The position numbers were made by a program, and so were the translations under genes. The notes beneath the pieces are model-generated. The model saw nothing but the letters and a program-made list of their open reading frames with translations, did no database searches and was not told the DNA's origin. From positions 1 through 26,738 of the forward strand of contig CAYXES010000003.1 in assembly GCA_964464075.1 (NCBI GenBank): a stretch of 26,738 nt of DNA. The letters run 5' to 3'. Of this stretch, positions 14,383 to 24,157 are shown piece after piece; the first letter of the stretch is position 1; every line of letters begins with the position of its first letter. The DNA is from an uncultured Erysipelothrix sp. (GTDB lineage Bacteria; Bacillota_I; Bacilli_A; Erysipelotrichales; Erysipelotrichaceae).

Positions 14383-15351
14383 ATGAAAAAGATAAGCTAT
14401 GGTATTTTAGGACCCGGTTATATTGCGCCACGATTTGTGGAAGCTGTGAATTTAAGTGATGTTGGGCAGGTAATGGCAGTAGCGTCCCTCACAGAAGGTC
14501 GTGCTTATGAATTTGCCCAGAAGCATGAGATTAAATACCACTATGATAATTATGAAGCTTTAGTTTCTAATCCTTTGATTGATGTCGTTTATATTTCAAC
14601 CCGCCATGATGATCACTACGATCATATTATGCTGGCTTTAAAACATCATAAGCATGTTTTGGTTGAGAAACCCATGGTTTTAAAAGAAGCACAAGCTGTA
14701 GCTTGTTTTGCTTATGCAAAGGCGCAGGGTTTATTTTTGATGGAAGCCCAAAAGATGGTGTTTTTGCCTTTAATTAAGGAATTGAAAAAACAAGTTGATG
14801 CGGGTATTATTGGTGACTTACGTTTAATTGAAACCTCATTCTCTTTTGCGGATCGTTTTGAAACAGGTCATTGGATGATTTCCTTCAAACATGGTGGTGG
14901 TTTATTCGCAACCTCATCCTATGGCTTAAGTTTTTCCCATTACTTTGCCAATAGTAAGCCTGCAAAGATAAGTGCGTTAGCGAGCTTGTATGAAAATAAA
15001 GCTGATCGCTATGGTGTCGCAAGTATCCTCTATGAGAATGGGATTTTAGCTCACACTCGTTTTGGTACGGATGTTGAAACGCGCAATCAAGCCTTTTTAT
15101 ATGGTTCCAAAGGTTATATAAAAATAGATTTATTCTGGAAGAATGACTTTGCGAAATTATTTCTTCATGATGGAACTACTCAGGATATTCAAGTGGATAC
15201 CATCAATGATATGGTATATGAAATCAATCATGTCAATGAGTGTTTAAACAAGGGATTGCTGGAATCACCAACGATGTCGGCCACCTTCACAACTCAATTA
15301 ATCTATGATATGGAAACCATTAAGAATATGATTAGTGAGAATGGAAGCTAG
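14383..15351 (+). CDS. Gfo/Idh/MocA-family NAD(P)-dependent oxidoreductase
   Basis: GILGPGYIA Rossmann start, DVVYIST, HVLVEKP, FLMEA. Confidence 0.9.
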   Translation: MKKISYGILGPGYIAPRFVEAVNLSDVGQVMAVASLTEGRAYEFAQKHEIKYHYDNYEALVSNPLIDVVYISTRHDDHYDHIMLALKHHKHVLVEKPMVLKEAQAVACFAYAKAQGLFLMEAQKMVFLPLIKELKKQVDAGIIGDLRLIETSFSFADRFETGHWMISFKHGGGLFATSSYGLSFSHYFANSKPAKISALASLYENKADRYGVASILYENGILAHTRFGTDVETRNQAFLYGSKGYIKIDLFWKNDFAKLFLHDGTTQDIQVDTINDMVYEINHVNECLNKGLLESPTMSATFTTQLIYDMETIKNMISENGS

Positions 15352-15352
15352 G

Positions 15353-16624
15353 ATGATTTTTGGTTTTGGACAAGTAGAAATTTCTATCAATGAACCCATG
15401 CGTATGGATGGCTATTTTGATCGAGTTCAAGCTTCAAGTGGTATGACCTTTCCTTTAATGAGCACGGCATGTATCATTAAAACAAGCAACCATACATTAG
15501 TGATTATTGGTCTTGATATTTTAGGTGTTGATTTAAATATTACCCAAAAAGTAAAGGCCACGATTAGTAAGAGATATCAAATTGATGAGCAGCATATTAT
15601 TCTTAATGCTTCCCATACTCATGCCTCCTATGCATCCGCTCGTTTTGGAGACTTAGGTGGTTTTTTTGTGTTGGAAGATCCAAATGAACTTGAATTAAGT
15701 TATTATGAGAATTTACCTAATAAGATTGTTGAAAGTGTAGATGTTGCTTTTAAAAATCTTCAAAAGGGAAGCATAAGCTACCAACAATGTACCATCGAAG
15801 GAGTTTCATCCAATCGGGTTAATAAACATAACTCTTTTAATCAGGTAGCGACCATCTTTCATTTTAAGGATGCACAAGATCAGTTAAAAGGAATATGGAC
15901 GATTTTTGCGAATCATCCCACCGTTCTTAATTATACGAATACCCAAGTGTCCAATGACTTTATATCCTATTATCATCAAAAGTTAAAGGAACACTATCCT
16001 GATATCACATGCTTGTATCTTCAAGGTTGTGCAGGCGATATTTCCAGTCGTTTTGTGAAGCAAGATGCCAGTATGGCTCAAGCTCAGATGATTGGGTCAC
16101 AATTCGCAAAGCAAGTGTTAACATGTCAAACCCCTTTAATTCAACTCACAAAGTTAAAAGATATTAAATATAGAGAGTTAATATTTGATGCCCGTAACTT
16201 TAGTGAAGATCTTGATAATCAACTTAAACAAGCTTATGATGCTTATCAAAGTGGTCAAGCCCAGGGTCTTCATCACTATGAATTGCGTAGTTTATATGCA
16301 ACTTATGAAGGCTTTTTGATGGCCAAACAAATTCAAATAAAGTTGAAAGTTCCGACTTTAAAGGCAAGTATGAGTGCCATTGAATGGGAAGAACTCATCC
16401 TCATTACAACTCCCTTTGAAACCTTCACTGGTATTGATATGCAGATTCAAGCCATGAGTTCAAAGGATGTGGTGGTTTTGGGCTATACCAATGGGTATCT
16501 TGGATACTTGGTGGATGAAGCGAATGAAGACAATGAGTTATCTTATGAAAGACAGATGATGGTTATAAAAAAAGACTCCTACAAGCAAGTGCTTGATCAG
16601 AGTCAAAAATTCATTGAAAAGTAA
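15353..16624 (+). CDS. neutral/alkaline ceramidase-like (N-terminal domain family) Zn amidohydrolase
   Basis: ASHTHAS, FANHPT, QGCAGDIS, PFETF, GYTNGYLGY motifs; probable start ATG 15353 just after the gfo stop (the ORF track starts at 15335). Confidence 0.72.
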   Translation: MIFGFGQVEISINEPMRMDGYFDRVQASSGMTFPLMSTACIIKTSNHTLVIIGLDILGVDLNITQKVKATISKRYQIDEQHIILNASHTHASYASARFGDLGGFFVLEDPNELELSYYENLPNKIVESVDVAFKNLQKGSISYQQCTIEGVSSNRVNKHNSFNQVATIFHFKDAQDQLKGIWTIFANHPTVLNYTNTQVSNDFISYYHQKLKEHYPDITCLYLQGCAGDISSRFVKQDASMAQAQMIGSQFAKQVLTCQTPLIQLTKLKDIKYRELIFDARNFSEDLDNQLKQAYDAYQSGQAQGLHHYELRSLYATYEGFLMAKQIQIKLKVPTLKASMSAIEWEELILITTPFETFTGIDMQIQAMSSKDVVVLGYTNGYLGYLVDEANEDNELSYERQMMVIKKDSYKQVLDQSQKFIEK

Positions 16625-16648
16625 AAGGGATGTCAGCGACATCCCTTT
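16624..16648. terminator. bidirectional intrinsic terminator
   Basis: AAAGGGATGTC-AGC-GACATCCCTTT perfect 11-bp stem. Confidence 0.88.
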
Positions 16649-16668
16649 ATTAGCATATAATATGTGGC

Positions 16669-17490
16669 TTAGAAGAAACCAACGAGTGCACCTAATAGAC
16701 CAAGAACTAGGACTAATAAGATACATTTGACTGGTGACCAGCCGCGTTTGATTAGATAGTAAAGCAATAAGGTAATTCCAAGTGGAATTAATTTAGGCAT
16801 AATACCATCTAATACTTCTTGAATAATTACAGGTTCTGCAGCATCTGGGTTTAATACTAATTTAGTAGCAGTACCACCATAAACGGAGGTAAGAGCTCCA
16901 ACAACCATAACCCCCAGAATACTTGCAGCTCTGGTAAATTCTTTAGCGTGTTTGGTTAGTGCATCAATGGCGTTAACACCAAGGTCATATGACCAGTGCA
17001 TCAACCAGTAACGAACCCCGAAGTGAACGATATTGAACATTGCCAAGAATACGAATGGTCCAGCGATGTTGCCTTCAAGTGCTAAGTTAGCACTGATACC
17101 GGCAGCAATTGGAATTAAAGTAAACCAGAAAATAGCATCACCAATACCACCTAGTGGACCCATTGCAGCTACACGTACTGCACGGATGGTTGCGATATCA
17201 GCTTTTTGTTGCTCAAGGGATAAAACGATACCCATAACGAAAGTTACTAGGAATGGGTGAGTATTAAAGAACTCAAGGTTGTGTCCCATAGAAGCAGCTA
17301 AGTCTTCTTTGTCTGTATGAATCTTTTTAAGCCCTGGAATGATTCCATATAACCAACCAGCAGCTTGCATACGTGCGTAGTTAAATGAACCTTGAAGGAA
17401 CAATGAACGCCATGCCATTTGATTCAGTACTTTTTTATCCAGCTTTGCGGCTGGTGTCAAATTTCTGTATTGTTCAACATTAGATGCCAT
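16669..17490 (-). CDS. agaD: PTS mannose-family EIID, GalNAc/galactosamine type (AgaE/AgaD-like)
   Basis: QGSFNYARMQAAG, HNLEFFNTHP, MGPLGGIGDAIFW; start ATG 17490 with GGAGG 8 nt upstream. Confidence 0.88.
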   Translation of the reverse strand: MASNVEQYRNLTPAAKLDKKVLNQMAWRSLFLQGSFNYARMQAAGWLYGIIPGLKKIHTDKEDLAASMGHNLEFFNTHPFLVTFVMGIVLSLEQQKADIATIRAVRVAAMGPLGGIGDAIFWFTLIPIAAGISANLALEGNIAGPFVFLAMFNIVHFGVRYWLMHWSYDLGVNAIDALTKHAKEFTRAASILGVMVVGALTSVYGGTATKLVLNPDAAEPVIIQEVLDGIMPKLIPLGITLLLYYLIKRGWSPVKCILLVLVLGLLGALVGFF

Positions 17491-18274
17491 CAGTGTCGCC
17501 TCCTTGTCCTCCGGACATGCCGGCAATTTTAACATTCATTTGGAAGTCATACACTGCAACAGCGATACCAATTAAAGCAATCGCTAGAAGTGCGGCGCCT
17601 CCAAGCACAGGATCAACAACGTTTGCGATAGCAAATCCCGCAAAGTAGAAGCCCCAGTATTCTTTAGAAAGCATAACTTTCATAAGCACTGCAAATCCTA
17701 CGAAGCGCATCATACCACCAGCAGCACCTAAACCGTCCCAAACCCATTGTGGGAATACTTCGGTTAAGGTTGTACCGATTTGTTGACCGAATAATAAACC
17801 TAAGAATACAACTAAGCCGAATAATAAACCAAGCATAGCCATTGCAAAGTAGTTAAGAAGTTCAATACCTCTTGTGTCAGCTTTTTCAGCCATTTGATCA
17901 GCTTTAGTCATAAGTGGGGACATTACTGTAAATAGTAATACAACAGCTTGTTGTCCCAATAATGCAAATGGAATAGATAATCCAAGTGCTTGTTCTGGAT
18001 CAGTTAGATCCATCGAAATTGCAAATACGGTTGCCATAATTCCACCGATAACGGCGTTAGGTGGTTGTGCACCACCGACTGGCATACTTCCAATCATCAT
18101 TAATTCGTAGGATCCACCAACAATTAAGCCGGTTTGCAAGTCCCCTAGGATTGCCCCTACAATCGGCCCCATAACGATAGGGCGGTAGAATGATTCGAGG
18201 AAGTTGAATTGGTCGATTGCTGCCACGAAGGTAACAAGTACAACCAATAAAATTTGAAACATATTAAATTCCAT
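17480..18274 (-). CDS. agaC: PTS mannose-family EIIC, GalNAc/galactosamine type (AgaW/AgaC-like)
   Basis: RPIVMGPIVGAILGDLQTGLIVGG.YEL, GGAQPPN. Confidence 0.88.
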   Translation of the reverse strand: MEFNMFQILLVVLVTFVAAIDQFNFLESFYRPIVMGPIVGAILGDLQTGLIVGGSYELMMIGSMPVGGAQPPNAVIGGIMATVFAISMDLTDPEQALGLSIPFALLGQQAVVLLFTVMSPLMTKADQMAEKADTRGIELLNYFAMAMLGLLFGLVVFLGLLFGQQIGTTLTEVFPQWVWDGLGAAGGMMRFVGFAVLMKVMLSKEYWGFYFAGFAIANVVDPVLGGAALLAIALIGIAVAVYDFQMNVKIAGMSGGQGGDTDGI

Positions 18275-18293
18275 ACAATTTCATCTCCCTTTC

Positions 18294-18770
18294 TTATTTA
18301 AATAATTTTCCGAGGTTCTCAGCAGATTCGCTAGGAACTTTGCGGATTTCGAGTTCGACACCCAACTCCTGCAAACGCTTAAAAGCAGCTACATCATCAT
18401 CATCAACTGCCACTACAGTTGCGACTTGACGTTTGCCTTCCGCCATATGCATGTTACCGATGTTAACTTTCTTAATGGGAACGCCACCCTCAACCATCTT
18501 TACGACGTCTTGGGGATTATCCACAATAATGAAAATCTTCTGACTATCACTCGCTTTATGAATTACGTTGATTGTTTTTTCAATCGTAAAATAGCGAGTT
18601 TGAGCGTAACTTGGTGCGCTCATGTTCATTAGATTTTGGCGAAAGCTATCGCCGGCGACTTGGTCATTAGCAACCAAAATAAGATTGGCTCCTACAACCG
18701 ATGTCCACTGGGTTGCCACTTGACCGTGTATCAAGCGACTGTCAATTCTGGTAAGAAGTATATTTGGCAC
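18294..18770 (-). CDS. agaV: PTS mannose-family EIIB, AgaV-like
   Basis: MPNILLTRIDSRLIHGQV (phospho-His), NIGNMH; GTG start with SD AAGGAGG. Confidence 0.9.
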   Translation of the reverse strand: MPNILLTRIDSRLIHGQVATQWTSVVGANLILVANDQVAGDSFRQNLMNMSAPSYAQTRYFTIEKTINVIHKASDSQKIFIIVDNPQDVVKMVEGGVPIKKVNIGNMHMAEGKRQVATVVAVDDDDVAAFKRLQELGVELEIRKVPSESAENLGKLFK

Positions 18771-18803
18771 GTCCTCTATCCTCCTTCAGCGTAAACACTT
18801 TTG

Positions 18804-18830
18804 TGTAAACGTTTACCTGCCTTAATTATA
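18804..18830 (-). promoter_or_regulatory. PTS operon promoter -10 with a cre site at the transcription start
   Basis: TATAAT (18825-18830, minus); GGTAAACGTTTACA (18804-18817) matches cre at 13/14 and contains the palindrome GTAAACGTTTAC; no consensus -35. Confidence 0.75.
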
Positions 18831-19119
18831 ACTTACATCATTTTTTTAATATTTATAATTTTCTGTGTTGTATTTGACTTTTTTAGTAATTTTTAAAAAC
18901 AAAATTGACAAATTATGCTTATTTTTGTATTTATGCGTTATAATGATGATAGATAAAGAAATTGTTAATCATTAATAGGTAAGACCAGGAAAAGCATGCT
19001 TTTTTAGTTCAACTCATAAAACATAGTGAAATACATATTAAACGAAGTTTTCTAATTATTCTATGGAAAGGGGGCTATGATTAGGCCGCCATAATCTAAC
19101 CTAATCATACAATATTATC

Positions 19120-20283
19120 ATGTTTAATAAAACTACTTCCGCCCAAATTACTAAGTATTATCAGATTTTTAATGAATTAACCGATGATACCATCTCAACT
19201 TTGAATGTGACAACGAAGAACATTCGTCATCAAAACATTAATCGTTTCTTTCAATTTGATAAGCCTACCTACATAAAATGTACCAAGGGAATCGTGATGA
19301 TGGCCTTAGCGAATGAGGATAATCCCGATCAGATTGACTTTTATGTGGTGCACCGGGTTGTGAAGATTAATAAACGCGTTCTCTATAATTTTGTATCATT
19401 AACCAAATCCAGTACCTTGGTTATTTACAGTGAGCCAGGTACAAAACGCAATATCATCCACTTGGATAAAGAAATCAAGATACCCAAGATTATTCCAACC
19501 TTTTCCATTAATCAAGTTTATGCCTATTACTTACAGGTCAAAGGGTCAGCTTATTTCTTTAGTGGAGAAAAACATAATTATTGGGAATTAACCTATGTGG
19601 ATACGGGTCAATTAAAGACCACCATTAATGGGATTACCCATGAATTGAATGATAAGGATCTCATTATTTATGGGCCCAATCAATTCCATAATCAATTCAT
19701 TGATAATGATCGGGTATGTTCCTATCTAACGGTGATGTTTGAGATGAATCCCGAACATTATTCAACCATAGTCAATCGTAAATTCCATGTGAATCGTCAT
19801 CTGCATCCCATCATGCAAAAGATTATGAAGGCCACCACCAATGAAACCTTACTGGGTGAACAACTCCTTTTAGTTTATCTAAAGGAATTAATTTTAGAAC
19901 TCTATCAGTATGATTATGTGGATGCTCAAATGATTACCACACCCGCTCAACAACGCTTTGAGGATGAGATGCTGAATGAAATCATTGTCTTTATTAATGA
20001 GAATTTATCTGAGCCTTTAACGGTGGAGGCTATCTGTCAGAAATATGCGATTAGTCGCTCTACCTTACAAGCACTCTTTAAGAAGAATATGAATGTAGGG
20101 CCCAAGCATTTCATTAATGAACGCAAGCTCGCTCAAAGCAAGCTCTTAATTAAGGAGAATAAGTATACCTTATCCGAAGTAAGTGAGATGTTGTCTTATA
20201 CCTCCATCCATTATTTCTCAAGGACCTTTAAAAAACGCTTTGGTATCACTCCAAGTGAATATGCCAAATCCATCTATAAATAA
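19120..20283 (+). CDS. AraC-family transcriptional regulator with long N-terminal extension
   Basis: Cupin HNYWELTYVDTG..FH and C-terminal double HTH (ISRSTLQALFKK, YTSIHYFSRTFKKRFGITPSEY); 387 aa. Confidence 0.92.
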   Translation: MFNKTTSAQITKYYQIFNELTDDTISTLNVTTKNIRHQNINRFFQFDKPTYIKCTKGIVMMALANEDNPDQIDFYVVHRVVKINKRVLYNFVSLTKSSTLVIYSEPGTKRNIIHLDKEIKIPKIIPTFSINQVYAYYLQVKGSAYFFSGEKHNYWELTYVDTGQLKTTINGITHELNDKDLIIYGPNQFHNQFIDNDRVCSYLTVMFEMNPEHYSTIVNRKFHVNRHLHPIMQKIMKATTNETLLGEQLLLVYLKELILELYQYDYVDAQMITTPAQQRFEDEMLNEIIVFINENLSEPLTVEAICQKYAISRSTLQALFKKNMNVGPKHFINERKLAQSKLLIKENKYTLSEVSEMLSYTSIHYFSRTFKKRFGITPSEYAKSIYK

Positions 20284-20284
20284 A

Positions 20285-20308
20285 AAAACTCATCGCAAGA
20301 TGAGTTTT
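20285..20308. terminator. bidirectional intrinsic terminator (GCAA tetraloop)
   Basis: AAAACTCATC-GCAA-GATGAGTTTT between convergent araC and agaZ. Confidence 0.88.
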
Positions 20309-21587
20309 AACGTTGAATAGCGTAAATATAATCGTCTAAGAATTCTCCAATGCAATCATAAACAATGTCTTCAAAGGTTGCTTGGATTTCACCTGCGACA
20401 ACTTTACGGTATTGGTTCGGTAGCCATTGGTACAAGACCGGCATCAAGATTTCATTATGATTGATGTTATGACGGAGGGTTTCAATCGCAGCTTCCACTT
20501 GATCATAAGGCAAGTAATAGCGAATCCGATCCGAATAGGAATAAGCACGTTTTAGTTTTTGTGCCTTGTCATCACCCACATAATATTTTTGCCAGTATTT
20601 AGGATCTTCAAGCATGACACTTTCTAATACTTCTCTTAAATTAGAAGGATTATCTAACATGAGTTCACTTTCAATCTGTGCTAAAGCAAAGAGAGCTTGA
20701 CGATAACCAAAGGTTAGACCTGGACCAACTTTTAGAATGGCGATATCATCATCGACCATTTGACGTAAACCTTCTTTGGTTTGATAGTCGGTACTGTGTC
20801 CTTCAAAGACTAAACTATCATAAGCAGCTTTTGCTGCAACTAAGTTTTGAGCTTTTTCACTGTTGTAGTGGAAGACTTGGTTATCTCCAAATTCAACGCC
20901 CGGTTGAACCACAATCCCAACGACATCATCCCAGTTTTCAGCCGGTAAGGTTGATTTAAAGACATTGACTTGATGATTGAAATCATCAACTTGGGTAACT
21001 TCTAAGGTATCGACCTCTTCTTGTTCACCACCTGGAATTGGTACTTCACTACCAACGATAAAACTTGGTTTAATGGCTTGGGGGTCTTGCTGTTTCAAAT
21101 CCGCATAGGCCTTATTCGCGACTTCCATTAAGATGGCAGCCCGCTTCGCAACCACTTCGACTGGAAGGGGAGCGTGAGGGTCATCACTGGAAATCTTCAT
21201 TGAAGTATCAATATGGATTTTAGTAAAACCCGCAAAGACATATTGGTAAATAAGTTCTTTCGCCTTTTCCATCGCGGTTGCTTCATCATGATTAATAAAG
21301 GTTAAAGGACCTAAATGGTCGCCTCCTAAGATAATCTTATTAAAGTCATAGCCCATTTCATCACATAGGTCTTTTACCATATTTTTAAAATCAATGGGTT
21401 TCATACCGGTATAACCACCATATTGATCCACCTGATTAGCTGTGGCTTCAATCACTAAGGGAGTATCGGTTGTTTTTGCTTTTTTAATACAAGCCTTTAA
21501 GACCATGGGATTAGCCGTACAGGCACTGTAGACACCTTTGATATTGGATTGATGTCGATTTTTTAAGAGTTGTTTTAAGGGATTCAT
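20307..21587 (-). CDS. agaZ: GatZ/KbaZ(AgaZ)-family protein (tagatose-6P 4-epimerase / aldolase non-catalytic subunit)
   Basis: SACTAN, IEATANQVDQYGGYTGM, LGGDHLGP, HIDTSM, GSEVPIPGG, VVQPGVEF, FEGHSTDYQ, LKVGPGLTF, YSYSDRIRYY. Confidence 0.92.
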   Translation of the reverse strand: MNPLKQLLKNRHQSNIKGVYSACTANPMVLKACIKKAKTTDTPLVIEATANQVDQYGGYTGMKPIDFKNMVKDLCDEMGYDFNKIILGGDHLGPLTFINHDEATAMEKAKELIYQYVFAGFTKIHIDTSMKISSDDPHAPLPVEVVAKRAAILMEVANKAYADLKQQDPQAIKPSFIVGSEVPIPGGEQEEVDTLEVTQVDDFNHQVNVFKSTLPAENWDDVVGIVVQPGVEFGDNQVFHYNSEKAQNLVAAKAAYDSLVFEGHSTDYQTKEGLRQMVDDDIAILKVGPGLTFGYRQALFALAQIESELMLDNPSNLREVLESVMLEDPKYWQKYYVGDDKAQKLKRAYSYSDRIRYYLPYDQVEAAIETLRHNINHNEILMPVLYQWLPNQYRKVVAGEIQATFEDIVYDCIGEFLDDYIYAIQR

Positions 21588-21871
21588 TTTTCCTCCTTTG
21601 AGAGCACTTCACTGATAGAGTAACGTGAGATATCAAGATGGGCTCCCCGCTTAACTTCCACGGTAATAATGTCATCCTTGATTTCAATGACTTTACCATA
21701 GATACCACCCGCAAATAAAATACGTTTACCAACTTGGATATCTTGGTGTAATTGAACAAGATAAGCTTTACGCTTTTTCACCATGGAAAAGCTATATAAA
21801 TAGTAGACTACAATAACAATTAGAAATAAACCTGCCATCACAATGGATGACGCTAAAATTTGTTCCCACAT
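21584..21871 (-). CDS. YajC-family small membrane protein
   Basis: One N-terminal TM, then L..G..I...GGIYGKV..I.DD.I.VEV YajC-like pattern. Confidence 0.78.
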   Translation of the reverse strand: MWEQILASSIVMAGLFLIVIVVYYLYSFSMVKKRKAYLVQLHQDIQVGKRILFAGGIYGKVIEIKDDIITVEVKRGAHLDISRYSISEVLSKEEK

Positions 21872-21883
21872 AGTGCTGCTCCT

Positions 21884-22321
21884 TTAAATTCCATCTTCGC
21901 TATCGAAGTCATCTTGGGTAGGTGCTTCATAGACAAAACGTAGAATTTGTTCTTTACCGGTGTTCACAACTTGGTCGGCTAAGCCTACAACATCACTTTC
22001 AAATTGTCTCATCATATTTAATTCAATTAAAAGTGGTAGATTAGCGCCCGCAAGCACTTCAATGTTTTCATAATTGCTGGCGACGATACAGGCAGACTTA
22101 AAGGGTGAACCACCCGCTAAGTCAGTTGCGAAGATGATTCCATCGCAGGTTTGATTTAAGTCTTCAATCGCATTCACCATCGCTGCTTCGAGCGTCTCAG
22201 TGGTTGCGCCTTCAATAAAATCCAAGGCATAAAAATGGGTTGGTTTCCCCCCAATGAGGGTCAAGGAACTTTCTAGACCTGTTGCAAAGTGTCCATGACC
22301 AGAAATAATTAATCCTATCAT
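21884..22321 (-). CDS. agaF: PTS mannose-family EIIA, AgaF-like
   Basis: IISGHG (phospho-His), DLAGGSPF, GANLPLLIE. Confidence 0.88.
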   Translation of the reverse strand: MIGLIISGHGHFATGLESSLTLIGGKPTHFYALDFIEGATTETLEAAMVNAIEDLNQTCDGIIFATDLAGGSPFKSACIVASNYENIEVLAGANLPLLIELNMMRQFESDVVGLADQVVNTGKEQILRFVYEAPTQDDFDSEDGI

Positions 22322-23487
22322 GATTGACCTCCATGTCCGTATAAGGTTACCCCTTTAACCACTCTATTTACACTTCCACTTGGATCGGGATTATCAGGGG
22401 TCCGATCTAAGGCTAATGATTTAAATAAGCTCAGCGTTTGTGCCAAACTTACATAAGCTAACGTCACAAGATTATCATGAAGTGACTTGGCTTCTTGGTA
22501 GATAACCTTTAAATGATCAAAGTCATAATCTGAAGCATTCTTTAGGGTATCAACAATTAGAATTTGACCCTTATTTTCTTCTTGACTCATTTCAGTAATT
22601 AAATCAATTTCATAACGACGTACTTCTGGTTTGGTGGATAAGTACATCACACTTAAGGTTTTAGCATTTAAGAATGATTTCGGACCATGTCTAAAGCCTA
22701 AGAAGGTGTTAAAGAGACTGGCGGTCTCACCACCGGTTAATTCTAAAAGCTTTAGGGCTGATTCTTGCGCAATTCCTTTGTGGGTATGGCTACCGAGGTA
22801 GACAATGCGCTCAAAATCAAATTGATCCATTTGTTGTTTCAAGACTTGGTAACCTTCATTTAAGAATGCTTCCACCGCAAGGCTGAGAGTTTCAACATCA
22901 TTACTGGTGATTGAAGAATCAAGCAGTAATAAAGCCATCAGATACATATTGGTGAAGCTAGAAGTCATCGCAAAACCAATATCATGGGTTTCTGGTGTTA
23001 ATTCAATGGATAAGATATTATCATGATGATTCGCAAGATCAGCGAGCTTACCATTGGCATTACAAGTAATAAAGATGTGCTTAATATCAGTGCAGTGGTT
23101 TTCGACCTCAAGAAAAGCCCCAATGGATTCGGGTGAGTTACCAGAACGTCCAAAAGACACCATAATGGTTGGTGCATCTTTATCCAAACAAGCTGCGACA
23201 TCAGTAAGTAAATCAGTCGTTGGAATGGATTGTAGGTTAGCCTTAACTTTAGTTTTCAAATTACCCATGAGGGTATTCCCCACAAACTCAGAGGAACCCG
23301 CACCACTAAAGACAATGTTGGCTAGGGGATTATTGATATAATCCTTGATAAATGCTTGATATTTTTCTTGGTTGGCATCATATTGTTGTTTGGTTTTACG
23401 CCATGTGGATGGCTGATGATTTATTTCTCTTGCGGTTTCATACGCATCGAGTTGCTTTAAAGTTTCTTTTGATAAATTAAAATACAT
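22318..23487 (-). CDS. agaS: SIS-domain galactosamine-6P deaminase/isomerase AgaS
   Basis: REINHQP, SGAGSSEFVG, SFGRSGNSPES, FAMTSSFT, ESALKLLELT, GFRHGPKS, PDNP.PSG.VNRVVKGV; start ATG 23487 with SD AAGGGA. Confidence 0.92.
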   Translation of the reverse strand: MYFNLSKETLKQLDAYETAREINHQPSTWRKTKQQYDANQEKYQAFIKDYINNPLANIVFSGAGSSEFVGNTLMGNLKTKVKANLQSIPTTDLLTDVAACLDKDAPTIMVSFGRSGNSPESIGAFLEVENHCTDIKHIFITCNANGKLADLANHHDNILSIELTPETHDIGFAMTSSFTNMYLMALLLLDSSITSNDVETLSLAVEAFLNEGYQVLKQQMDQFDFERIVYLGSHTHKGIAQESALKLLELTGGETASLFNTFLGFRHGPKSFLNAKTLSVMYLSTKPEVRRYEIDLITEMSQEENKGQILIVDTLKNASDYDFDHLKVIYQEAKSLHDNLVTLAYVSLAQTLSLFKSLALDRTPDNPDPSGSVNRVVKGVTLYGHGGQS

Positions 23488-23514
23488 ACTATCCCTTCTT
23501 TCTATGTCACTTTT

Positions 23515-23566
23515 ATTATAAGGCATTAAACTTGTGATAAGGTTGTTAGTTTTGTGTTAGTGTTTG
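23515..23566 (-). promoter_or_regulatory. agaS operon promoter with putative activator site
   Basis: TATAAT at 23515-23520 (minus), weak -35, motif TGTGTTAGTGTTTG at 23553-23566 shared with the agaV promoter. Confidence 0.5.
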
Positions 23567-23641
23567 CATTTATTAACGAATGTTAAATTTAGAATACACA
23601 AAATTAAAAAACTCACTATAATAAAAGGTGAGGTGTTACTT

Positions 23642-24157
23642 ATGAAAAAAAGAGATTTACGCCATATTAATTTATATGAAGATAAAAAAGGACAAACAAT
23701 TTTATATGATCCTAAGAAAAAAGAAGGCTATATCGTTCCTGCTGATGATGTTGGTAAGTTGGCCGCACTACAATACCGTTGGTATGTGGTTTTAGCGGTT
23801 GGGATTTTAGCTCATTTATTATTTAATTTGAAATGGTGGTTAAGTTTAGCCATTGTGGTAGTCGTGTTTATCTTAGGTGAGTATACCTATCGTGTTGGGA
23901 TGCTTAAGAAATATGATCGGATTCAAAACTATACACCAGCAAACATTTTGGATAAGTCCATTGAGGCTTACAAACAAGATAAGAAGGCGATGCTAAGTCG
24001 GATTGCTTTGTATTCAGCTCTAGGAGCCTTAGCGTTTCTATCAACCCAGGGACAATCCATTAAAATGGTTGAAACTCAAATTATGTATTTGGTAGGAGCT
24101 TTTGCCTTATTAAATGCTGGCTATCATCTTTACATTTATCTAAAAAGAAATAAATAA
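23642..24157 (+). CDS. hypothetical membrane protein (about 4 TM segments)
   Basis: Hydrophobic segments; SD AGGTGAGG before ATG 23642; TATAAT at 23617-23622. Confidence 0.75.
   Translation: MKKRDLRHINLYEDKKGQTILYDPKKKEGYIVPADDVGKLAALQYRWYVVLAVGILAHLLFNLKWWLSLAIVVVVFILGEYTYRVGMLKKYDRIQNYTPANILDKSIEAYKQDKKAMLSRIALYSALGALAFLSTQGQSIKMVETQIMYLVGAFALLNAGYHLYIYLKRNK

Follow-up and report, generated by a model that had tools for sequence, protein, structure and literature searches.

How would a bacterium dispose of D-tagatose-6-phosphate if it encoded neither a dedicated tagatose-6-phosphate kinase nor a tagatose-1,6-bisphosphate aldolase? The question is raised by agaZ (positions 20307-21587, minus strand; 426 aa), a gene of the GatZ/KbaZ family that lies on a 26,738-nt stretch of DNA from an uncultured Erysipelothrix sp. 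(assembly GCA_964464075.1, contig CAYXES010000003.1), hereafter the window. The window is the first 26.7 kb of a contig (C3) of a metagenome-assembled genome (MAG; G000) that comprises 1.28 Mb in 161 contigs and is estimated to be 88% complete. Here, agaZ closes an operon that starts with an agaS-like gene and is accompanied by a sugar phosphotransferase system (PTS). The answer we consider probable is that AgaZ acts as a tagatose-6-phosphate 4-epimerase (EC 5.1.3.40), feeding the carbon of N-acetylgalactosamine (GalNAc) and/or galactosamine (GalN) to fructose-6-phosphate.

The AgaZ protein and its candidate active site

Residues 4-424 of AgaZ align with positions 1-419 of the 420 in the Pfam profile GatZ_KbaZ-like (PF08013; 532.7 bits, cut-off 26.7), and about 410 residues can be aligned with the structures of E. 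coli GatZ (2FIQ; E=3.1e-97, 41% identity) and of a Sinorhizobium meliloti homologue (3TXV; E=2.3e-92). The protein scores below the NCBIfam equivalog cut-offs for the family (TIGR02810, 478.7 vs 568.8 bits), for KbaZ (NF012002, 467.1 vs 707) and for GatZ (NF011626, 401.9 vs 579). Its closest named relatives, at ~50% identity, are found in Erysipelotrichaceae MAGs and in Breznakia.

What do such proteins do? GatZ/KbaZ proteins are related to class II aldolases, and E. coli GatZ and KbaZ are reported to convert fructose-6-phosphate to tagatose-6-phosphate in vivo (PMC11907403). PMC11907403 also cites evidence, obtained in vitro or by genetics, that homologues in Agrobacterium, Sinorhizobium and Caldilinea are epimerases. 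An earlier note on this DNA, made from the sequence alone, had stated that some homologues act as tagatose-6-phosphate epimerases; the literature bears this out and now extends it to the two E. coli proteins.

In the GatZ model of PMC11907403, zinc is bound by His88, His257 and Glu171, Asp87 serves as the base, and Cys20, Glu44 and Lys279 are specific to the family. These seven positions (C20, E44, D87, H88, E171, H257 and K279) align with C23, E47, D90, H91, E181, H264 and K286 of AgaZ, and no substitution of any of them occurs in the 22 sequences aligned, which include AgaZ and 20 homologues from the same family of bacteria. The set, consisting of two histidines and one glutamate as metal ligands, a catalytic aspartate, and the Cys/Glu/Lys replacements, differs from that of class II fructose-1,6-bisphosphate (FBP) aldolases. 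As judged by this alignment, the predicted catalytic site of AgaZ is intact.

Search for a kinase and an aldolase

The earlier note had stated that the window holds no aldolase or tagatose-6-phosphate kinase, and this is the case: 34 open reading frames (ORFs) of at least 80 aa are present; 29 of them, those without extensive overlap by a longer ORF, were classified and include no class I or class II aldolase, no PfkB-type kinase and no PfkA. The rest of the contig (5 kb) likewise contains no aldolase and no sugar-phosphate kinase. Throughout the 88% complete genome, we found no GatY/KbaY, no LacD and no kinase of the LacC/FruK type.

The sole class II aldolase of G000 is the glycolytic Fba (TIGR01859, 396.9 bits, cut-off 343), which reaches 241 bits with the GatY/KbaY model (TIGR01858, cut-off 443.55) and represents the short type related to GatY/KbaY (NF009374, 254.9 bits). 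Besides, the genome encodes PfkA (C45, 353 bits) and a class I FBP aldolase (C55:6135-7022, minus strand; NF003784, 449 bits). A second, partial copy of the latter runs across two contig ends (C128:2836-3099 and C115:3-599) and might stem from a paralogue or from another strain.

Several further genes were considered and dismissed. Of the three PfkB-family genes, one encodes a ribokinase (C23) and two encode proteins similar to pseudouridine kinase (C76, and C39, which adjoins psuG), none being LacC or FruK, and the Pfam matches to DeoC/LacD trace back to DeoC itself (C18) and to an LsrF thiolase (C97; NF006081, 384.6 bits). The latter is part of a cluster (C97:290-4313) of genes for a SorC-type regulator, DhaL, DhaK, the LsrF-type thiolase and a small 106-aa ORF, which looks like a unit for the processing of a phospho-diketone or a compound similar to autoinducer-2, using a Dha-type kinase.

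Family-wide comparison

Since absence from an incomplete genome carries little weight alone, we extended the comparison to the Erysipelotrichaceae as a whole, using one and the same sample of 201 genomes from 83 genera for every search. GatZ/KbaZ proteins are encoded by 133 of these genomes, representing 68 genera. Dedicated tagatose-1,6-bisphosphate aldolases are missing throughout: LacD was detected in 0 of 201 genomes (a Lactococcus control was recovered), and no class II aldolase in any of the 201 exceeded the GatY/KbaY cut-off, the best one scoring 336 bits (an E. coli control was recovered). The search for kbaY, gatY, lacC and lacD that the earlier note had suggested hence returned nothing in G000, and no LacD or GatY/KbaY-level aldolase in the family.

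The companion that does occur with GatZ is AgaS. A gene of this family is present in 128 genomes (354-465 bits with TIGR02815, with all 128 matches under the cut-off of 529); 125 genomes have both genes, eight GatZ only, three AgaS only and 65 neither, and the three AgaS-only genomes are 87-94% complete. Because GatZ is kept together with AgaS across a family devoid of GatY/KbaY and LacD, a role in disposing of the AgaS product would be its most economical explanation.

Other aldolases do not follow this pattern. Extra class II aldolases show no association with GatZ (odds ratio 0.89), and the class I FBP aldolase, present in 42 of the 201 genomes, is independent of it (odds ratio 1.03), so that the copy on C55 was rejected as a hidden partner of AgaZ. 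Among the GatZ-positive genomes that are at least 95% complete, 35 of 96 contain a single FBP-type aldolase gene of any class, including one from the same genus (G051; 98%). FruK-like kinases are common (160 of 201 genomes) and never lie near GatZ in the single-contig genomes with listed coordinates.

Gene neighbourhoods of GatZ

We also compared the surroundings of GatZ, taking the flanking 9 kb in both directions in 20 genomes of the family; clustering their ORFs with those of the window gave a set of 21 loci. In 11 of them, the window included, GatZ is found with AgaS, enzyme IIA (EIIA), an AraC-type regulator, EIIB, EIIC and EIID, and a conserved membrane protein of 185-197 aa. Ten of these 11 have the regulator, ten the membrane protein adjoining agaS and four YajC, and a NagA paralogue (TIGR00221, 317 bits) is often located inside such loci. 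In the other ten, GatZ stands alone amid housekeeping genes, and almost all of the genomes concerned encode AgaS at another place. The arrangement seen in the window is shared by other organisms; it is the norm in the family, and has been described in Erysipelotrichaceae from the pig gut (bioRxiv 10.1101/2020.07.16.206219).

Within 9 kb of GatZ, none of the 21 loci contains a class II aldolase or a PfkB-type kinase; PfkA is seen at the edge of one (L064). That a partner would have been recognised is illustrated by a positive control, Clostridium cavendishii DSM 21758 (L011:5538-11254), in which GatY (TIGR01858, 504 bits) lies directly upstream of GatZ. The epimerase reading is favoured since GatZ often resides in genomes with a single FBP-type aldolase and never adjoins a class II aldolase gene in these loci.

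Elsewhere, the Bacillota MAG OH_CDB_36 (L018:9022-11233) has a GatZ homologue whose start is overlapped by a PfkB gene resembling tagatose kinases (NF049991, 279 bits). As predicted from its genes, this pair reproduces the layout known from the alphaproteobacterial pathway made up of a tagatose kinase and an epimerase.

Organisation of the locus and predicted substrate

The operon that ends with agaZ is on the minus strand and tightly packed. It begins with the gene for an AgaS-family SIS protein (22318-23526; 402 aa; TIGR02815, 354.3 bits, cut-off 529.2), a putative galactosamine-6-phosphate deaminase/isomerase yielding tagatose-6-phosphate, and continues with the PTS subunit EIIA (21884-22321; mannose family, GalNAc/GalN type; PF03610; AgaF model NF040761, 132.6 bits, cut-off 130), a gene for a YajC-like small membrane protein (21584-21871; TIGR00739, 45.9 bits, cut-off 44.2; PF02699, 52.5 bits) and agaZ. 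Neighbouring genes overlap by 4 nt at two junctions, agaS/EIIA and yajC/agaZ. Directly after the agaZ stop codon follows a terminator-like hairpin of ten pairs with a T-run, TTTATTTATA (20308-20285, minus strand), and thus the gene order and the end of the operon are as the earlier note had described them. We also note the presence of a yajC-like gene within a PTS/AgaS sugar operon, where it covers the start of agaZ by those 4 nt.

This terminator abuts the 3′ end of a convergent gene for an AraC-family regulator (19120-20283, plus strand; 387 aa), which is placed between the two PTS operons, carries PF00165 and PF12833 at its C-terminus and has a long N-terminal region. It stands in the place of the DeoR/GntR repressors that are usual for aga loci. 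The second operon (18770-16669, minus strand) encodes EIIB of the sorbose/mannose family (18294-18770; TIGR00854, 204.7 bits), EIIC (17480-18274) and EIID (16669-17535), and is closed by another terminator-like hairpin with an 11-pair stem (16624-16648, minus strand). Taken together, the locus holds a complete mannose-family PTS of the Aga type, with IIA, IIB, IIC and IID.

Which amino sugar is imported? The EIIB protein scores ~199.5 bits with both the GalN and the GalNAc models (cut-offs 180). EIIC and EIID match the GalNAc-type models AgaW (NF040757, 242.7 bits vs 182.3 for the GalN-type IIC model) and AgaE (NF040760, 326.4 vs 254.6 for the GalN-type IID model) best, but with scores under the respective cut-offs. 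No deacetylase is encoded inside the AgaZ locus; the only one found in G000 is nagA on another contig (C113:1627-2307), which is followed by a 298-aa ORF and then by nagB (C113:1-709). What looks like an internal deletion in this nagA is a 100-N gap in the record, and the gene was thus not taken for a pseudogene. Its product is 54-61% identical (in one, more distant case 38%) to the NagA paralogues inside aga-type clusters of other genera. In G000, the GalNAc route would be complete as far as tagatose-6-phosphate, since NagA, an AgaS-family enzyme and the PTS are all encoded. The earlier note had named GalN as the substrate; given the GalNAc-like PTS subunits and a NagA elsewhere in the genome, GalNAc is at least as likely a substrate.

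Further genes surround the two operons. Divergent from agaS is the gene for the conserved membrane protein (23564-24157, plus strand; 197 aa), a hypothetical protein that matches no Pfam or NCBIfam model. Converging on the PTS operon from the other side (14383-16624, plus strand) are genes for an oxidoreductase of the Gfo/Idh/MocA family and for a protein of 429 aa that matches the N-terminal part of neutral ceramidase (PF04734); with no homologues in the 20 family neighbourhoods, neither was counted as a member of the conserved locus. Past the window, up to the end of the contig (C3:29500-31989), lie a gene for a PRD-domain transcriptional regulator and then EIIA and EIIB of a different PTS family.

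Occurrence and expression

DNA near-identical to the window was found in metagenomes of bioreactors, wastewater, compost and landfills. Contigs derived from the locus are also present in two wastewater metatranscriptomes. One of these, 2205 nt in length, matches positions 16650-18854 and coincides with the second PTS operon, running from a point shortly before EIIB through EIIC and EIID to the predicted terminator. For agaZ, yajC/EIIA and agaS there are shorter pieces, whose word depth is lower than that of the long contig. This RNA evidence consists of assembled contigs, is fragmentary and is no proof of co-transcription from agaS to agaZ. It supports expression of the locus in situ, with carry-over of DNA being a possible source.

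A proposed route and its alternatives

We propose that the locus serves as a PTS-dependent catabolic unit for GalNAc and/or GalN, with the substrate deduced from gene content. The amino sugar would be imported and phosphorylated at C6 by the mannose-family PTS, to which one operon contributes EIIA and the other EIIB, EIIC and EIID. If the substrate is GalNAc, the NagA encoded on C113 would remove the acetyl group. The AgaS-family SIS enzyme would then deaminate and isomerise galactosamine-6-phosphate to D-tagatose-6-phosphate, which AgaZ would epimerise at C4 to fructose-6-phosphate by a metal-dependent retro-aldol/aldol reaction, with H91, E181 and H264 as modelled ligands and D90 as the base. 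Fructose-6-phosphate may finally enter glycolysis via the housekeeping PfkA and FBP aldolase, or be used in biosynthesis. A single epimerase would thereby take the place of a dedicated tagatose-6-phosphate kinase plus a tagatose-1,6-bisphosphate aldolase. The route is no energetic shortcut, because PfkA is still needed; what it saves is genes, and what it offers is direct access to fructose-6-phosphate. We lean towards a broader version as well, wherein Erysipelotrichaceae, and probably other Bacillota with an orphan GatZ, would catabolise amino sugars without any tagatose-1,6-bisphosphate branch and join glycolysis at fructose-6-phosphate through AgaS and a GatZ-type epimerase.

Several points weigh against this proposal. 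The genome is estimated to be only 88% complete. It encodes PfkA, a class II Fba of the short subclass and a class I FBP aldolase; the minimal AgaS-AgaZ route put forward in the earlier note is backed by its genomic context, but not by an aldolase-poor genome. The residues conserved in AgaZ are likewise those of E. coli GatZ and KbaZ, which also stabilise GatY and KbaY, and as those proteins do both, residue conservation does not separate an epimerase from a helper. The association of AgaS with GatZ (odds ratio 339, Fisher p=1e-39) is uncorrected for shared ancestry. AgaS scores below its NCBIfam cut-off, and for that reason its ketose-phosphate product can be named only by inference. More generally, substrate, flux direction and the epimerase activity of AgaZ are what we infer from sequence and context.

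Might the enzymes of glycolysis provide the classical route instead? PfkA would then phosphorylate tagatose-6-phosphate, Fba or the class I aldolase would cleave tagatose-1,6-bisphosphate to triose phosphates, and AgaZ would be a non-catalytic subunit that stabilises or activates the aldolase, the role described for GatZ/KbaZ towards GatY/KbaY in E. coli. All of the enzymes required are encoded in G000, the Fba being a relative of GatY/KbaY, and in one family genome (G124) a class I aldolase lies beside AgaS-GatZ. Published schemes for Erysipelotrichaceae implicitly rest on pfkA and gatZ (PMC8063399; bioRxiv 10.1101/2020.07.16.206219). We nevertheless regard it as unlikely: no aldolase among the 201 genomes comes up to the GatY/KbaY cut-off, aldolase paralogues do not track GatZ, fba never adjoins GatZ in the 21 loci, and a helper role has been demonstrated for dedicated Y subunits only. 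Moreover, the class II FBP aldolase of E. coli discriminates strongly against tagatose-1,6-bisphosphate.

Doubtful to a greater degree is a locus for a different amino sugar or ketosamine, in which the AgaS-like enzyme would make another ketose-6-phosphate for AgaZ to epimerise or to cleave. In line with such a substrate, AgaS falls below the curated cut-off in every family member, as do the EIIC and EIID of the window below theirs, the regulator is AraC-type instead of the usual DeoR/GntR type, the locus lacks a deacetylase, and the organism comes from bioreactors, wastewater, compost and landfills, not from a mucin-rich gut. Against it, the SIS enzyme and every PTS subunit score best with the Aga models, many relatives have a NagA paralogue in the cluster, and pig-gut Erysipelotrichaceae isolates that possess such a cluster grow better with GalNAc (bioRxiv 10.1101/2020.07.16.206219). 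Hardly credible, finally, is an AgaZ that would itself phosphorylate tagatose-6-phosphate, an idea that goes back to older database annotation, namely the depositors' names for 2FIQ and 3TXV, and is echoed in a review remark that AgaZ was proposed as a kinase (PMC12118421). The Pfam and NCBIfam matches of AgaZ are confined to GatZ/KbaZ-family aldolase-subunit models and comprise no kinase family, its family is akin to class II aldolases (PMC11907403), and an aldolase for the kinase product would still be missing.

Significance

The epimerase activity of the GatZ/KbaZ family and the locus type in pig-gut Erysipelotrichaceae have been published, and what we describe consequently amounts to a variant of a known pathway and to a corrected annotation; neither the enzyme class nor the kind of system is new. 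In our literature search, we came across no proposal that GalNAc is degraded via AgaS and an epimerase. To explain the well-known link between ABO host genotype and microbiome in pigs, GalNAc consumption by Erysipelotrichaceae has been put forward, and pathway completeness has been scored, there and in reviews, with gatZ as an "aldolase"; in a 2025 review, KbaZ/GatZ still appears either as a subunit of the aldolase or as a potential kinase (PMC12118421). If the epimerase route is true, the "aldolase" step in GalNAc maps and in KEGG-style completeness scores is wrong for a whole family, including strains whose abundance is controlled by the host ABO genotype in pigs, and GalNAc users would have to be predicted from genomes by other criteria. 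With no dedicated kinase or aldolase needed, it would explain why small genomes keep AgaS and GatZ alone, and the direct delivery of fructose-6-phosphate would serve biosynthesis, too. The proteins might also be harnessed as natural, mesophilic, stand-alone candidates for tagatose-6-phosphate/fructose-6-phosphate epimerases in tagatose production.

Comparison with known systems

AgaZ shares the full length of its Pfam family, and the proposed metal-binding and catalytic residues, with the GatZ/KbaZ-family epimerases of A. tumefaciens C58 and S. meliloti, with the fructose-6-phosphate 4-epimerase of Caldilinea aerophila and with E. coli GatZ and KbaZ. As in the hexitol/tagatose pathways of the alphaproteobacteria A. 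tumefaciens C58 and S. meliloti (PMC11907403), it comes without a Y-type aldolase. The origin of the tagatose-6-phosphate differs: while those pathways generate it from galactitol or tagatose via a dehydrogenase and a tagatose kinase, here it would arise from an amino sugar via the PTS and AgaS. The host differs as well, as AgaZ, with its predicted epimerase role, belongs to a small-genome member of the Bacillota.

Compared to the aga/kba cluster of E. coli (agaR-kbaZ-agaVWEF-agaA-agaS-kbaY-agaBCDI), the window has in common a mannose-family PTS, whose best matches are AgaF/V/W/E, an AgaS-family gene and a KbaZ/GatZ-family gene. In contrast to E. coli, KbaY is missing from the locus, from the genome and from the family, AgaA is missing from the locus (with NagA encoded elsewhere), the regulator is AraC-type instead of the DeoR-type AgaR, and a yajC-like gene is embedded in the operon.

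The closest published locus type is the GalNAc cluster of pig-gut Erysipelotrichaceae (OTU476-like strains 4-15-1 and 4-8-110; Yang et al., bioRxiv 10.1101/2020.07.16.206219; PMC8063399). Both this cluster and the window have an agaEFVW-type PTS, agaS and gatZ, and both are without gatY and without a repressor of the agaR/gntR type; the pig-gut cluster additionally contains nagA and fruK, whereas the window cluster has neither and derives from an environmental organism. In the pig-gut papers, gatZ counts as the aldolase for tagatose-1,6-bisphosphate, the kinase step falls to pfkA or fruK, and an epimerase is not considered (bioRxiv 10.1101/2020.07.16.206219; PMC8063399). Clostridium cavendishii DSM 21758, lastly, resembles the window in having EIIB-IIC-IID, AgaS, EIIA and GatZ in one cluster, with a GatZ 50% identical to AgaZ. 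Unlike the window and the family, this cultured organism combines such a PTS locus with a canonical Y-Z pair and is thus well suited as a contrast strain.

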